DNA of 64,000 bases from positions 83,050 to 147,049 of the forward strand of contig CAVVCK010000001.1 of assembly GCA_963746775.1 (NCBI GenBank), written 5' to 3'. A model generated the notes under the pieces. That model did no database searches, was not told the DNA's origin, and saw only the letters and a list, made by a program, of their open reading frames with translations. This stretch comes from an uncultured bacterium (GTDB lineage Bacteria; Patescibacteriota; JABMPQ01; CAVVCK01). The position numbers and the translations under genes were made by a program. The first letter of the stretch is position 1. Each line of letters opens with the position of its first letter. Shown one piece after another: positions 57,308-62,602 of this stretch.

Positions 57308-58783
57308 TTAAGAAAAATATTTTCTCAATTCCTCCAATATCCTCACCATAGCCAAGGTATCCAGCTTGCAATACTTAATTAAATCCTCATAAATTTTTTC
57401 CGCCTCCTGCTTGGAAATCTTCGGGTCAATCATTTCCCGCCATTTATTGGAGGCAGTTTCCCCTTCATGGATATCAAGTTCTGAATATTTCAAATCAGGG
57501 CATAATACCGGCAATACTTTCTTAATTGAGGCGCTGCCGTGAAAATCCTGGTGCACATAAAATCCTTTGCGGAAGACAGACATTAAATCAAACATCCTAT
57601 TATTTACACCTTCAAAAAACTCAACAAATTCCGGATACCTTTCGCCCATTTCCCGATTGCACCCTTTCTCAAAGCCCATATTCCAAGCTAGAATTGTCCC
57701 CCGAGAACCAATCAATTTACTAAGCTCCTTGGCTAATCCCGGTGATGGGTCCCGGAAGCCTTGAGCCAAATATTCATAATGCTTTAATTCCGCGCCTTCA
57801 CTTTCCTGTACATGCAGAGAATATTGAAAAATCATGCGCTGGTAAGGACGATAGCCATCAAACAAGGGCACGCCCGGTGCAAAGGTTTCATAATCCAAAA
57901 AATACAAAGGATACTCTAATTTCTCCAGTTCATCCTTAATATTATCTTTTTCAATATGAACCTCGCCCGTCTTTTCCACGCTCCAATGCCGCAGCCCCGC
58001 CTGGCTGGTTACCACCCCCTCCGGAATATCCTTAATCTCCATAATCCCTTCATCAATAAGCATATTTAATTTCTTTTCATTCAATCCGCCGGCTATGCTG
58101 TAAATAGATCTTGCCGGCAAGTCCTTCCAACAATAAGAAAGAAAGGTGCACTCATAAGGATTATTGCACTGTTTTAAAATCCTCTGCTGCACTTCCTCTT
58201 TTTCTTTCATAATTGAAAGAGCCTTATCAATTTGAAGCTTCGTTTCTTCTTCTAAATATTTAACCTGGTCCGTCACCTCCACCAGTTCCAATAATTTATC
58301 CGGCTCTATCTCTCCTGACTTAACATATTTATTATTAATATGATAAATAAAAAGCTTGTCGACTTTTAAACCTGCTCCTTCCAGGCAAATCTTTTGGAAG
58401 GCTAAATCGTAAATATTGATATCTTTGACAGAAGTGGAGCTTTTTACTTCGTAAATATTATAGGCTTCCCCATCGTCAGCTAATTGCAAGATATCAGAGC
58501 GGCAAAAAAGATTTTTAGCGGAAAAAGTAGGCTGGAATATAACTTTTGCTTTTTCTTTTATTAATTTAGTGGTTTCAAATATGGATTCCTTAAATCCCTC
58601 TACTTGAGCATTTTTCCCATCAGGAAAAAGCTTATAGGCATAAGTCTCCACCTTATAGCCTTCATCAAAAATCTTCTGCAAATTCTCATCCACTTCCGCA
58701 GGCAATAAATCTTTTCTATTCTTATAGAGCCATAAATACTTTTTACACTGGATAAATTTTATAAAATCGGATTTGGTTAGCAT
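57308..58783 (-). CDS. DUF2779-type fusion of a Cas4/RecB-like PD-(D/E)xK nuclease (with a 4-Cys cluster) and a C-terminal RNase-H-fold 3'-5' exonuclease-like domain
   Basis: 491 aa. Cys13 plus CNNPYECTFLSYC (C-x5-C-x5-C) fit a Cas4/AddB-style Fe-S cluster. RSDILQL ... YEVKSS form a D...E-x-K nuclease motif. C-terminal YFLDYETF ... H ... D resembles DEDD exonuclease motif I. GC content is visibly higher than the neighbours (for example ccccgcctggctggttaccaccccctccgg). Confidence 0.55.
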   Translation of the reverse strand: MLTKSDFIKFIQCKKYLWLYKNRKDLLPAEVDENLQKIFDEGYKVETYAYKLFPDGKNAQVEGFKESIFETTKLIKEKAKVIFQPTFSAKNLFCRSDILQLADDGEAYNIYEVKSSTSVKDINIYDLAFQKICLEGAGLKVDKLFIYHINNKYVKSGEIEPDKLLELVEVTDQVKYLEEETKLQIDKALSIMKEKEEVQQRILKQCNNPYECTFLSYCWKDLPARSIYSIAGGLNEKKLNMLIDEGIMEIKDIPEGVVTSQAGLRHWSVEKTGEVHIEKDNIKDELEKLEYPLYFLDYETFAPGVPLFDGYRPYQRMIFQYSLHVQESEGAELKHYEYLAQGFRDPSPGLAKELSKLIGSRGTILAWNMGFEKGCNREMGERYPEFVEFFEGVNNRMFDLMSVFRKGFYVHQDFHGSASIKKVLPVLCPDLKYSELDIHEGETASNKWREMIDPKISKQEAEKIYEDLIKYCKLDTLAMVRILEELRKYFS

Positions 58784-58823: not shown

Positions 58824-59315
58824 CTATTTTCTACGTCCATCTTTATTATATAGATTAACAACATAACTTTTATTAACAATCCTAATTTTTTTATTATTGT
58901 ATTCAAACAGATTATTTTTAAAATAATCTGCCTTGCAGAAATATTTTTTTAATTTTCCATTTTTATTAGCCTTAAAATAATTCTCAATAATAACAGGCAT
59001 TTCTACTTCATAATGATATCTAGAGGAAAAATTTCTAAAACTTATTTTCTGGTAGCCTATCAACATTTTCTCTGGTTTAAAGACTACCCAATTTTTATTT
59101 TTAAAATCATTAATAATATTATTATTGTTAATTATTGTGCTAGCAGTATCCTCAAAAATATGAAAATCTATATCGCCATGAGGCCTAGGTTTCTCAAAAG
59201 AACCCTTACAGAGTTCCCAAGCTATGCCTCCGCCTAACCAATAATCTATCTTGTACTTATTAAATATTTCAGAAAATAAACAAATAGTTTCTAATTGATG
59301 TTGAAATTTATTCAT
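58824..59315 (-). CDS. Small Lnu(A)/LinA-like (lincosamide-nucleotidyltransferase-like) minimal nucleotidyltransferase
   Basis: 163 aa. YWLGGGIAWELCKGSFEKPRPHGDIDFHIF parallels Lnu(A) YWLDGGWG ... HRDIDIDF (about 161 aa): a GG ... D-x-D nucleotidyltransferase core of the same size class. Confidence 0.55.
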   Translation of the reverse strand: MNKFQHQLETICLFSEIFNKYKIDYWLGGGIAWELCKGSFEKPRPHGDIDFHIFEDTASTIINNNNIINDFKNKNWVVFKPEKMLIGYQKISFRNFSSRYHYEVEMPVIIENYFKANKNGKLKKYFCKADYFKNNLFEYNNKKIRIVNKSYVVNLYNKDGRRK

Positions 59316-59327
59316 TAGACTTTTTCA

Positions 59328-60263
59328 TTATCCCTTAAACTCCCTAATATATTTCCCAAACAATTTTTGAAATAAAACAGTTCTTTTATATAGCCATTCA
59401 AAATAATCTTCATAGTTATCTTGCTCAAAAATAAAAGGAACTTTCTTTTCTATTTTTATACGAGATGCTATAGAAGCATCAACCCATTCTACTTTTTCTT
59501 CAATTTCTTTTTCTATCTCATCTTTTTTATCTCGTAAATAGTTAAATAATTCTTTATTTCTATTTATATACACTTCACAACCTAATATATTTTCCCTGGA
59601 ATTTATTGTTAAGCCTATATGTGCATCGGAATTTCCCATGCTAAAATTATACCAATGTTGAGGACGTGGCGACTGTAATCTTATTCTGCTATCCTTTGAT
59701 TTTATGTATTCTTTCAACTTTGTCCAAAATTCTAATTGTTTAAGCTTAGTATCTGTCAATTCACTATTTTTCGGGCTTGTCTTTATTGTTTTTGCCCATT
59801 CATTAGGACTGATAATAATTTCAAATTTAGGTGCCGGATTTGAATCTTCTATCTGCCATAATTCAATCTTAATTAGAAAAAAACCAATACCTTCATCGGT
59901 ATGCTCATTTAACCATTCAATTGCTTTTTTATGTTCTTCTCTTTCATTTTTTACAATCCAGATAATAATTTCTGCGTCATACCCGGAAGCATAAGTTATA
60001 ATTTTACCAAGGTGATCATGATTGGTATCTTCTAGTTGATTCTCAATAATTATTTTTCTTTCCGAATTTTCCTCTTTAGCTAAAATATCTACATTAAATT
60101 TACCAACACTGGCCTCTGTTTGTATTAGTTCAATATTTACTCCAATTTCTTCGCTTAATAAATCTAAATATTCTTCTGAAGCTAGCCAGTTTGTAAATTC
60201 ATTTTCATGTACCCATTCTTTTCTTAAATCAACATTCTTTAACTTTGATAATGGTTTTTTCAT
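59328..60263 (-). CDS. DUF4268-like protein with an N-terminal PD-(D/E)xK (NucS/RecB-like) endonuclease domain
   Basis: 311 aa. WVHENEFTNWL ... VGKFNVDILAKEENSERKIIIENQLEDTNHDHLGKIITYASG shows the D ... (I/V)ENQ ... HLG pattern of this nuclease family. The C-terminal half is uncharacterised. Confidence 0.5.
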   Translation of the reverse strand: MKKPLSKLKNVDLRKEWVHENEFTNWLASEEYLDLLSEEIGVNIELIQTEASVGKFNVDILAKEENSERKIIIENQLEDTNHDHLGKIITYASGYDAEIIIWIVKNEREEHKKAIEWLNEHTDEGIGFFLIKIELWQIEDSNPAPKFEIIISPNEWAKTIKTSPKNSELTDTKLKQLEFWTKLKEYIKSKDSRIRLQSPRPQHWYNFSMGNSDAHIGLTINSRENILGCEVYINRNKELFNYLRDKKDEIEKEIEEKVEWVDASIASRIKIEKKVPFIFEQDNYEDYFEWLYKRTVLFQKLFGKYIREFKG

Positions 60264-60327
60264 TTTTTGTCTTTTTTTAATATTTAATAGGCTAAAGATT
60301 TAAAGGTAGACATTTTAATAATTTAAC

Positions 60328-61047
60328 TTACTTTTTCCAATAATCTAGATTTGAAAACTCATCTACTGCACAATAATAATTTTTTAAGTCTTGTGACATT
60401 TTATTAATGATCTGACCTCTTATTATTTTACCATTCTCTAATCTTCCCTTCTTTATTGGCCAATACTTTTGTTCTTTTACAAACAGTCCGGGTAAAAAAC
60501 CAAACATCATATAAAACGACTCAAATTCTTTATTTACTGCTAACAATTTTCCAAGCACATCAATAGGAATTAAGTTTGAATATAAATTTATTTTATAGCT
60601 CAAACTCATCCTAATAAAAGGCAGGTTAATTTGTAAATGTTCCCAATCCTTAATCGTCATGCCTTTTAGTTTTTCTTCGAGATCAATTTCTGATACTTTT
60701 TTTAATATTTTTAATAATTCATTTGTCGCATTCTTCACACCACCAGAACCTACTACAAATCCTAGTGGTTCACTCATGTGACTTATAAGCATATTTCTAA
60801 GCGATAATAGATCATCTTTTGCAATATTATATGCTTCTTTATATTTCCTTATTTCTCGCTCTTTTAAAAGCTTATCAACAATAAAGATAGTAAAAATAAT
60901 AATTACAAAAGAAGCGCTAAGATTGATAAAAAAATCTCCAAATTTATTATCAAAACAGAAACCTAATGCAAAACTTATAAACGAACAAAGAAGCAAAATA
61001 ATTATCAATTTTTTATTCTCTTTTATAACCGCTATAATTTTCTTCAT
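60328..61047 (-). CDS. Hypothetical protein with two N-terminal TM helices and a soluble domain of about 160 aa
   Basis: 239 aa. TM1 LIIILLLCSFISFALGFCF, TM2 FFINLSASFVIIIFTIFIV. No recognisable catalytic motif. Confidence 0.4.
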   Translation of the reverse strand: MKKIIAVIKENKKLIIILLLCSFISFALGFCFDNKFGDFFINLSASFVIIIFTIFIVDKLLKEREIRKYKEAYNIAKDDLLSLRNMLISHMSEPLGFVVGSGGVKNATNELLKILKKVSEIDLEEKLKGMTIKDWEHLQINLPFIRMSLSYKINLYSNLIPIDVLGKLLAVNKEFESFYMMFGFLPGLFVKEQKYWPIKKGRLENGKIIRGQIINKMSQDLKNYYCAVDEFSNLDYWKK

Positions 61048-61050
61048 TTT

Positions 61051-61758
61051 TTATGATAATAAAACCTTATTCCATTGTAAATTAATATATTCCAAAACTT
61101 TAACCCATGAAATGTTTAGAATATCAACAATTGGAACAAAATCATCAAGATTTAATTTTAATCTATTTTCAGGATTCGTTATTTTCCTCCAATCAAAATA
61201 TTCTTTCTCTTCTCCTATTTTGGGTAAACAAAAATTTCTTTCCTTTACCAAACCTGGCAATATTCGACCATGAACCAAAAAATTTCTATAATTTTTTATT
61301 TCCTGCAGAGGGTATAAATTCATTTTTTGCCAGGCTGCACAAGCTTCTTTGCTACCATTATTTTTATTTTTTCTCTTCTCCAACCATGGATCGTAATCAG
61401 TAGGATTCCCAAATCTTTCTAGTAACTCAAACACTAAATCAAGCGAGCCACTTAATCTAGTCATACCGTCTATCAAATCATCATGATTAATAAGATTCTT
61501 TTTTAAAATATCAAATACTCTAATAAGATGCCTTAGTATTGAATAATGCAACTGCGCAATACAAACGTCATTTGCCGTTTTCCCTATTATTTTTAGTTCT
61601 TCGTCCGTCTTAAAATGAATATCTTTTGGTCTATTAGTTAATGACACAACATTTTTCAACCAAAAATCTTCATAACATTGTAACTGGTCTTTAATAAATA
61701 TATCCCAGTATTTTTGTTCATAATAATCGCCATCAACGGCTAGATTGTAACTACTCAT
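61051..61758 (-). CDS. Hypothetical protein with an Rx4H HEPN-like motif (candidate HEPN RNase)
   Basis: 235 aa. EIKNYRNFLVHGRIL contains R-N-x3-H-G, similar to HepT/Abi/Cas13-type HEPN catalytic motifs. The domain call rests on the motif alone. Confidence 0.35.
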   Translation of the reverse strand: MSSYNLAVDGDYYEQKYWDIFIKDQLQCYEDFWLKNVVSLTNRPKDIHFKTDEELKIIGKTANDVCIAQLHYSILRHLIRVFDILKKNLINHDDLIDGMTRLSGSLDLVFELLERFGNPTDYDPWLEKRKNKNNGSKEACAAWQKMNLYPLQEIKNYRNFLVHGRILPGLVKERNFCLPKIGEEKEYFDWRKITNPENRLKLNLDDFVPIVDILNISWVKVLEYINLQWNKVLLS

Positions 61759-62437
61759 ATTTGCGTTAAAACTTTATCAATTTTCTCCTCCATTATTTTA
61801 ATCAGCTTTTTGTTAGTATTAATAATTTCCTCCTCTTTTTTCACTTCAGCAACAAGCTGTTTTTGAATTTTAATTGAAGGAAGTGGAATCTTAATTTTTT
61901 CGAGATCTCCTTTGGTAATATGAACAAGTCCAACTCCTCCATGTAAATTATTTTCCACATCTTTAACAGCCATTTTTAATGCATAATATAAAAATTTTTC
62001 AGTATATTTATCAGAAAAAATAACCTTAAATATATGTTGATTTAATATACCTTTTCCCCTATTCCAAATATGCGGACCAAAAGAAGTACCTCTAGAACCA
62101 GACCAAGAAAATAATAAATCCCCATTATTAATAATTATTTTGTCTTGTACTTTTCCTGAATAATAATTAAATTTTGCTTGTAAATTATTCAAATTTTGAA
62201 TTCTAATAATAGGCAATCCACCATTTTCCTCTTTTTCCCAATCTTTTGGTTTAAATGCCCTACCATTTATAAATTCACAAACCTCACCTAATTCTACCCA
62301 TTCAACACCCTCTAACTTCCTAACCTCTTCACCAAAATATCGTCTCTCTCTCTAGATTTTTAATAACTTCATAAGCAGCATTAATCGCACCTTGCTTAGT
62401 TTCTATCTGTTTAATTATATCTTTTTGAACCTTATAA
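61755..62437 (-). pseudogene. hsdS: Remnant of a type I restriction-modification specificity subunit: central conserved region, a frameshift, then one target-recognition domain and the C-terminal conserved helix
   Basis: Frame A, 62329-62437: FYKVQKDIIKQIETKQGAINAAYEVIKNLERETIFW-stop (HsdS conserved helix). Frame B, 61755-62351: RERRYFGEEVRKLEGVEWVELGEVCEFINGRAFKPKDWEKEENGGLPIIRIQNL ... HGGVGLVHITKGDLEKIKIPLPSIKIQKQLVAEV ... (a TRD plus the HsdS C-terminal motif). The tracked ORF starts at a TTG inside frame B. There is no ATG, and the two frames overlap out of phase. Confidence 0.6.
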
Positions 62438-62602
62438 AACATAATCAGCAAATTTATGTTTAGATTCTTCATTATTTGAATCTGGTTTCGTGTATGTTTC
62501 TAAACTAACATTGGCCTTATTTTTACCATCATCAGCTAATAACCATCCGCTATTTTTTAGAAGATTATCAATTTTTATTCTAGCTTGTGCTTCTTTAGAC
62601 AT
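62432..62602 (-). pseudogene. hsdR: Orphan N-terminal 56 codons of a type I restriction endonuclease R subunit (HsdR N-domain), truncated by deletion
   Basis: MSKEAQARIKIDNLLKNSGWLLADDGKNKANVSLETYTKPDSNNEESKHKFADYVL-stop is the HsdR N-terminal signature (IDxxL ... GW ... DYVL). It is immediately followed, out of frame, by the hsdS fragment. No hsdM is present. Confidence 0.5.

Follow-up and report, generated by a model that had tools for sequence, protein, structure and literature searches.

A probable patchwork defense islet beside a degraded type I restriction–modification operon in an uncultured Patescibacteriota bacterium

The locus and the case for independent genes

The window analyzed here is a 64-kb stretch (64,000 nucleotides; positions 83,050 to 147,049) of contig CAVVCK010000001.1, which belongs to the assembly GCA_963746775.1 of an uncultured bacterium of the Patescibacteriota. 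It contains four co-directional genes, here numbered 1 to 4 (Table 1), which a first-pass annotation, made from the letters of the sequence, had proposed as a single undescribed defense or toxin–antitoxin-like module. The four open reading frames (ORFs) are exactly as they had been described in coordinates, strand and spacing (3–64 bp), and the defense-island setting that had been recognized around them is also borne out: an hsdS remnant lies upstream, gene 3 falls in a family catalogued as a defense candidate embedded in restriction–modification (R-M) loci, and gene 1 is credibly HEPN-like. The locus is nonetheless a patchwork, composed of one catalogued candidate, PDC-S11 (gene 3), one uncatalogued solo HEPN-like gene (gene 1), and two near-orphans (genes 2 and 4). 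We regard it as probable that this patchwork is a lineage-specific defense islet beside a wrecked type I R-M operon, and not one four-gene system.

Homologs of the four genes never co-occur elsewhere, and sequence comparison therefore does not support the four-gene module; its members appear instead to be independent neighbors. Gene 1 was followed through 74 other loci, all on metagenome contigs and many of them short. Relatives of genes 2, 3, and 4 (sought with phmmer) or of the DUF2779 gene that lies beyond gene 4 were present in 0 of these 74 loci, and no neighbor cluster recurred around gene 1 among them. Likewise, neither gene 1 (sought with a hidden Markov model, HMM) nor gene 2 (sought by sequence) was detected in any of 80 loci containing gene 3, where an ORF with a weak nucleotidyltransferase (NTase) core was seen once (locus L086). 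The close relatives of the locus, in which gene 3 has 92% amino-acid (aa) identity, keep gene 3 and the DUF2779 gene and lack genes 1, 2, and 4. This is the very outcome that the first-pass annotation, in suggesting a synteny comparison, had set against its own module. In the same comparisons, no link could be demonstrated between genes 2 and 4 on the one hand and genes 1 or 3 on the other.

Co-directionality and tight spacing, which had been offered as evidence for a module, are uninformative here because strand bias and short gaps are the norm in this window: nearly all of its genes lie on the minus strand, and its intergenic gaps have a median of approximately 52 bp, with 56% of them no longer than 64 bp. 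The region had also been called compositionally patchy, which holds for the low GC content of the four genes (25–29.5%); this anomaly is mild, at about one standard deviation (SD) from the value for the genes of the window (31.3 ± 3.9%), and no repeats bounding the low-GC block were found. A reading of this block as a bounded mobile insertion was considered and rejected, given this small deviation in GC and the detection of only AT-rich chance repeats. Elsewhere in the window, genes follow one another without a change of strand over approximately 47 kb (positions 376–47,705, minus strand), separated by very short spacers. The contig measures 547 kb and has 31% GC, and these features together suggest a small, streamlined genome, probably of the Patescibacteria type.

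Certain observations nevertheless weigh against the patchwork reading. From hsdS through gene 4, five genes are tightly packed on the minus strand, with a 4-bp overlap (ATGA) shared by the stop codon of hsdS and the start codon of gene 1, followed by spacers of 3, 64, and 12 bp between genes 1 and 2, 2 and 3, and 3 and 4, respectively. Given that no clear or convincing terminator was found in the intergenic sequence, the whole stretch may well be co-transcribed, and co-transcription could reflect a lineage-specific functional link; such a link would be invisible to comparative genomics, there being next to no relatives with which to compare genes 2 and 4. Moreover, the search for relatives of gene 2 combined a word index with scans of close relatives and was neither exhaustive nor structural. 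Finally, no HEPN HMM matches gene 1, the PADLOC model CARF_HEPN being marginal, with an E value of 0.017 in the region of the motif.

The rival explanation that draws on these observations holds that the four genes, with or without hsdS and the DUF2779 gene, form one lineage-specific operon encoding a new defense or toxin–antitoxin system, in which the PD-(D/E)xK nuclease and the HEPN RNase would act as effectors, with the NTase serving as regulator or antitoxin and the protein with two transmembrane (TM) segments as sensor or membrane effector. Its domain types are typical of defense systems, the catalog of embedded genes includes a multi-gene PDC with an AAD(2'')-like NTase, and the tight spacing, the translational coupling, and the lack of clear terminators between genes would all suit a single operon. 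However, tight spacing is the norm of this genome, the 74 and 80 related loci are without any co-occurrence, genes 1, 2, and 4 are missing from close relatives that have gene 3, and gene 4 has no PADLOC match and a sole relative located in a cysS–dus operon. We consider this explanation very unlikely.

Table 1. Genes of the locus and flanking features, with positions in the 64-kb window.
Feature	Coordinates	Strand	Length and description
Cas4-like PD-(D/E)xK + DUF2779 gene	57308..58783	minus	491 aa; 40 bp downstream of gene 4; outside the coordinates of the module as first proposed
Gene 4	58824..59315	minus	163 aa; near-orphan small NTase, LinA/ANT(2'') type (weak signals)
Gene 3	59328..60263	minus	311 aa; PD-(D/E)xK-type nuclease (predicted) + DUF4268; PADLOC PDC-S11
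Gene 2	60328..61047	minus	239 aa; two N-terminal TM helices and a soluble C-terminal region of ~180 aa
Gene 1	61051..61758	minus	235 aa; unannotated solo HEPN-like family, predicted RNase
Half-size hsdS	61755..62441	minus	orphan type I R-M specificity subunit; Methylase_S and Specificity_I matches
56-aa ORF	62432..62602	minus	upstream edge of the low-GC block

Gene 3, a PDC-S11 member and predicted nuclease carrying DUF4268

The domain mix of the locus had been said to match no named system, which is wrong in the case of gene 3: in a PADLOC check, this gene alone corresponds to the single-gene candidate PDC-S11. The model PDLC04911 (PDC-S11) aligns with residues 1–307 of the 311 residues of gene 3 over positions 1–313 of the 318 of the profile (E value 5.4e-116), and two further PDC-S11 models match with E values of 1.9e-108 and 1.6e-81. 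As all three HMMs are matched end to end, with no architectural difference, gene 3 can be assigned to PDC-S11 as a full-length member on the basis of these profiles. Among the four genes it is also the only one with a match in PHROGs, to a family of unknown function, while no sequence match was found for it in the PDB. On weak evidence, a promoter-like site is discernible in the 64-bp spacer upstream of the gene.

The earlier description of gene 3 as a PD-(D/E)xK nuclease with DUF4268 stands at the level of domains and motifs. Pfam places DUF4268 at residues 176–306 (E value 8e-29), and in 72 full-length homologs the residues E50, D59, E74-N75-Q76, E78, H82, H84, and Y91 are invariant. This N-terminal core (residues 50–91) reads as a PD-(D/E)xK-type signature, in which Q76 would occupy the position of the lysine.

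When genomes were scanned at one per species, 80 gene 3 loci were recovered, with amino-acid identities of up to 74%, in Patescibacteria, Bacteroidota, Planctomycetota, Proteobacteria, Firmicutes, and several archaeal phyla. This wide range of phyla implies horizontal spread. Within this set (L077–L156), PDC-S11 proteins are 70–74% identical between Patescibacteria, Bacteroidota, Planctomycetota, Gammaproteobacteria, and archaea, and their genes often adjoin serine or tyrosine recombinases. Taken as sequence evidence, this cross-phylum identity and the recombinase neighbors indicate recent transfer between phyla.

The PDC are ‘guilt-by-embedding’ candidates, 145 in number, which were picked out because they lie within loci for BREX, DISARM, or type I R-M (Payne et al., bioRxiv 10.1101/2024.01.29.577857). 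The homologs of gene 3 lie in or beside type I and other R-M loci, as this definition requires; in the window, it is a single gene with the hsdS remnant two genes upstream. HsdM is present in 21 of the 80 loci, and the recurrent neighbors further include HsdR, HsdS, N6_N4 and EcoRI-type methylases, and recombinases of the serine and tyrosine types. With HMMs built from the neighbor clusters of the gene 3 loci, type I R-M genes were counted in 18/74 loci and any R-M-like gene in 29/74, and the copies of the family found on plasmids give the same R-M-type picture of neighbors. No conserved partner gene emerged from the 80 loci. In about six of them (among others L078, L098, L100, L109, and L113), a small Xre-type helix-turn-helix (HTH) gene of ~70–95 aa precedes the gene 3 homolog by 4–5 bp. 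It may be a regulator comparable to C proteins, and it is absent from the window.

In the searchable literature, the evidence for phage resistance by PDC-S11 amounts to a correlative mention. DUF4268 is, however, borne by MdgA and MdgB, two experimentally validated modification-dependent antiphage nucleases; MdgA breaks down glucosylated T4 DNA, is dead as an E77A mutant, and was described by its authors as being without homology to known defenses (Cell Host Microbe 2025, PMC12366544). In addition, DUF4268 occurs in fusions with the type IV enzymes GmrSD (PMC4619093). Like MdgA and MdgB, gene 3 is a single gene that joins a nuclease domain and DUF4268 in one polypeptide; residue 77 is the catalytic glutamate of MdgA, to which the invariant E74 of gene 3 may be compared. 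The likeness is one of description and concerns how gene 3 probably works, not the family to which it belongs. With the GmrSD/BrxU type IV enzymes (PMC4619093), gene 3 shares the accessory domain DUF4268, which in those enzymes is attached to a nuclease directed against modified DNA. It differs from them in its PD-(D/E)xK-type domain and in having no NTPase module, whereas those enzymes contain DUF262 and DUF1524 (His-Me finger).

Because DUF4268 is found in MdgA, MdgB, and the GmrSD–DUF4268 fusions, we predict that gene 3 encodes a DNA endonuclease that works on its own and, in the manner of type IV enzymes, depends on modification of its target. Its N-terminal PD-(D/E)xK-type domain (D59, E74-x-Q76) would cut DNA and its C-terminal DUF4268 would probably recognize the substrate, such that the self-sufficient protein most likely restricts, in a type IV-like manner, phage DNA that contains modified bases.

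The Cas4-like/DUF2779 neighbor of gene 3

The Cas4-like gene downstream of gene 4 had been correctly recognized (DUF2779 in Pfam, E value 3e-39; Cas4 in PADLOC, 9e-7) and yet left outside the proposed module, although DUF2779 is the only neighbor that recurs beside gene 3. The 90% cluster of gene 3 has members on four other contigs (L157–L160), on which the DUF2779 gene (85% identity) comes first and gene 3 (92% aa identity) follows after 12 bp, in the order opposite to that of the window (L157:1593–4019). Nucleotide homology between these contigs and the window stops at the boundaries of these two ORFs; the flanks on the contigs encode a Schlafen/AlbA_2 protein and a Bro-N protein. A heliorhodopsin gene is found two genes away from the PDC-S11 gene in these close relatives (L157:5358–6125; L160:2720–3487).

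A third arrangement is that of a Methanosarcinales archaeon (L153:4686–7120), in which a gene 3 homolog (49%) is followed by a DUF2779 homolog (31%) after a gap of 2 bp. The archaeal defense island around this pair (L153:2853–11624) is co-directional and encodes an HFX_2341/CARF-like winged HTH protein, PDDEXK_4-like, HD_4, and PIN-like proteins, and an SNF2 helicase.

Considered together, the arrangements in the window (with gene 4 in between), in L153, and in L157–L160 could mean that the conserved unit of the locus is a pair formed by the PDC-S11 nuclease and the Cas4-like/DUF2779 protein, between which gene 4 was inserted in this genome. This explanation appears unlikely to us, given that a DUF2779 gene is located within 6 kb of a gene 3 homolog in only 1 of the 80 genome loci, that on plasmids the two families are mostly found in different organisms, and that the window and L157–L160 represent related lineages rather than independent samples. 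Furthermore, DUF2779 genes have defense-type neighborhoods of their own, and shared residence in islands would explain the adjacency.

Gene 1, a solo HEPN-like family

Gene 1 is the most novel piece of the locus. The Rx4H motif that had been noted in its sequence is confirmed as R158-N-F-L-V-H163 (RN-x3-H), which has the form of the HEPN motif (Rx4-6H, usually with a polar residue after the arginine). In 28 diverse members of the family, Y157, R158, H163, and G164 are invariant and N159 (at least 90%) and R165 are nearly so; D107, E111, R115, and D189-W190-R191 are likewise invariant or nearly invariant. The family comprises 114 homolog clusters from several phyla, all of which are labeled hypothetical. 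Gene 1 has no match in Pfam, NCBIfam, or PHROGs, the family profile finds no relative in the PDB by sequence, and no member was found in the plasmid, phage-genome, and viral-contig collections.

The predicted structure is a confident model with a helical fold that appears HEPN-like, to which N-terminal helices and small beta elements are added. A Foldseek search with this model gave no significant match, and HEPN–MNT toxins were among the top weak ones. Altogether, gene 1 is a credible HEPN-like protein of a stand-alone family. Its invariant R-N-x3-H predicts a metal-independent RNase, which would act as an effector of the abortive-infection or toxin type.

Among the known HEPN RNase toxins and effectors (the HEPN/MNT toxin SO_3166, RnlA/LsoA, the C-terminal domain of AbiA, and HEC-08), the minimal HEPN toxins are ~100 aa smaller than gene 1. 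Gene 1 also differs from this group in lacking zinc ribbons, a neighboring antitoxin gene, and a tyrosine at position H+2. In characterized HEPN/MNT toxins, the motif takes the form RX4HXY, and its tyrosine, at H+2, is AMPylated by the MNT partner; the motif is said to derive from work on SO_3166 and on the HEPN–MNT pair of Aphanizomenon.

The neighborhoods of gene 1 homologs are diverse. A census of 123 flanking genes (Pfam and PADLOC) revealed a few methylases, type III Res proteins, and AbiLi-like ATPases among mostly unrelated genes. An upstream gene is tightly coupled in 20 of 54 loci and a downstream gene in 18 of 55, and these genes are heterogeneous. The idea of a downstream ‘slot’, in which a TM protein would be constant in position and non-homologous in sequence, was rejected: few of the 18 tightly coupled downstream genes (55 loci) encode TM segments.

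The R-M remnant and its relation to gene 1

Upstream of gene 1, the locus had been described as a decayed type I R-M remnant. This holds for hsdS, which is recognized by Methylase_S (E value 5e-18) and by the PADLOC model Specificity_I (2.6e-22), and finds no support for the adjoining 56-aa ORF, which had been taken for a fragment of HsdR. In the window, hsdS is frameshifted by one extra G at approximately position 62,344, in a (GA)n run. An independent Logan assembly (L076:4750–5436) has an intact half-size hsdS of 228 aa that differs from the window by 1 bp; this difference could be an assembly error, heterogeneity in the population, or slippage. Neither hsdM nor hsdR was found in the 64-kb window, which thus contains no intact type I R-M system.

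The 56-aa ORF has no match in Pfam, PADLOC, or NCBIfam, nor to the HsdR proteins collected here, and its identification as an HsdR fragment was rejected on these grounds. By eye, there is a resemblance at the level of motifs (E..R.KID.LL...GW ... DYVL), the only basis for viewing the ORF as what may be left of the N-terminal part of a restriction subunit.

At this locus, the overlap of reading frames would couple gene 1 translationally to the hsdS remnant. Elsewhere, homologs of gene 1 abut R-M operons in about five loci, namely L001 (type III), L014 and L018 (methyltransferases), and L016 and L022 (type I), which echoes the overlap of hsdS and gene 1 seen here. A comparison can be drawn with PrrC and RloC, with which gene 1 shares the physical coupling of an RNase-type gene to type I R-M genes; the embedding of PrrC-type genes in type I R-M is well established (bioRxiv 10.1101/2024.01.29.577857). 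On this model, gene 1 would be a guard of R-M: a type I R-M complex would keep it inactive, an attack on that complex by anti-restriction proteins of a phage would set the RNase free, and its partner R-M system would have decayed in this genome.

The 4-bp overlap and the R-M-abutting homologs are consistent with such a role. In the 27 gene 1 loci of adequate length, however, type I R-M was detected in only two and any R-M-like gene in three, compared with 18/74 and 29/74 for gene 3, and most homologs reside among unrelated genes. Gene 1 also lacks the ABC-ATPase domain, or any sensor domain, of the PrrC/RloC kind, and the R-M system of the window is degraded, with hsdM and hsdR lost. A guard function of this type is therefore improbable in our view, and the stand-alone HEPN-like family remains the description that we retain for gene 1.

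Genes 2 and 4, two near-orphans

Gene 2 indeed carries the two TM segments that had been ascribed to it, in the form of two N-terminal hydrophobic segments. In a word-index search of 5.8 billion clusters it matched only itself; no match was found on plasmids or viral contigs, and no family was matched in Pfam, PADLOC, NCBIfam, or PHROGs.

Gene 4 had been called an Lnu/MNT-like NTase. The NTase core is present, with a GG...DID signature (G28–G30, D48-I-D50) that is shared with its one true relative, P0117, and aligns to LinA. The family signals are weak throughout: an E value of 0.0012 for Lnu(A) in NCBIfam (18.8 bits against a cut-off of 300), where Lnu(E) was also matched, 0.01 for Aminoglyc_resit in Pfam (16.4 bits against a cut-off of 21), and 0.02 for LinA in the PDB. 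The AlphaFold2 model is poor (pLDDT 53.6, with the C-terminal half unmodeled), and its top Foldseek matches are all NTases, including LnuA, ANT(2'')-Ia, and terminal uridylyltransferases (TUTases), the best being LnuA (E value 4e-4, TM-score 0.45). Gene 4 has no PADLOC match. From these weak signals, it may be placed as a small NTase of the LinA/ANT(2'') branch of the Pol-beta NTases. It resembles Lnu(A)/LinA and ANT(2'')-Ia in size (163 vs. 161 aa) and in the alignment of the GG...DxD core, whereas its scores fall far under the family cut-offs and nothing points to antibiotic modification. The scores of gene 4 thus do not make it a resistance enzyme, and its type and position do not make it an MNT antitoxin; the MNT part of its earlier label does not hold.

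The word-index search of the 5.8 billion clusters returned only gene 4 itself, and an exhaustive phmmer scan of 1.84 billion representatives gave one true relative, P0117 (37% identity); a second candidate from this search, the 946-aa repeat protein P0118, was judged spurious. P0117 (L075:4615–5139, GCA_042570845.1) sits between cysS and dus, overlapping the end of cysS and overlapping or abutting dus, and no HEPN, DUF4268, or two-TM gene is found near it. From this placement, the tiny NTase family may have a part in housekeeping or in functions connected with tRNA. The single NTase-core ORF encountered among the gene 3 loci lies in a gammaproteobacterial metagenome-assembled genome (L086:8239–8811), two genes downstream of the PDC-S11 homolog; it is 191 aa long and has a LinA-like core, with 36% identity to gene 4 across 66 aa. 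Pfam gave no match for this ORF or for the two that intervene.

The presence of a HEPN-like protein and an NTase had suggested a HEPN/MNT pairing. Under this hypothesis, genes 1 and 4 would be a split HEPN–MNT toxin–antitoxin system of type VII, with genes 2 and 3 inserted, in which the NTase would AMPylate the HEPN RNase and so silence it. The motif and fold of gene 1, the HEPN–MNT toxins among its top weak Foldseek matches, and the NTase core of gene 4 agree with it. The two genes are, however, not adjacent but separated by two others; relatives of gene 4 occur in 0 of 74 gene 1 loci, and no NTase is among the most frequent neighbor families. In addition, gene 4 matches LinA/ANT(2'') models and not those of the MNT type (NTP_transf_2/Polbeta-like). 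Gene 1, at 235 aa, contrasts with ~130 aa for those toxins, and reads H163-G164-R165 with an invariant G164, so that the tyrosine reportedly expected at H+2 is missing. We find such a pairing scarcely credible. It is preferable to consider genes 2 and 4 as lineage-specific cargo or fast-evolving genes, the functions of which are most likely unrelated to those of genes 1 and 3.

Implications

A single system made of all four genes would have amounted to a new defense with several effectors; finding otherwise saves the cloning of a chimera. Beyond the islet itself, a bolder proposal can be put forward, which we hold as tentative and rather doubtful: the gene 1 family would be a new, self-contained HEPN RNase immunity gene, a second-line abortive-infection effector sometimes placed at the 3′ end of R-M operons, and, separately, PDC-S11 and the Cas4-like/DUF2779 protein would form a recurrent two-nuclease unit. 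The tendency of the PDC-S11 and DUF2779 nucleases to sit together is a lead in this respect.

The analysis shows the structure of the genes, the families to which they belong, the conserved motifs, and the lack of synteny, whereas the enzymatic activities and defense roles are what we infer from these. The PDC-S11 candidate, of which gene 3 is a well-conserved example, gains a mechanistic prediction, that of a modification-dependent DNA nuclease with D59, E74, and Q76 as catalytic residues. The solo HEPN-like family of gene 1, uncatalogued to date in that no Pfam, NCBIfam, or PADLOC model covers it, is suitable for inclusion in the profile sets of defense finders.

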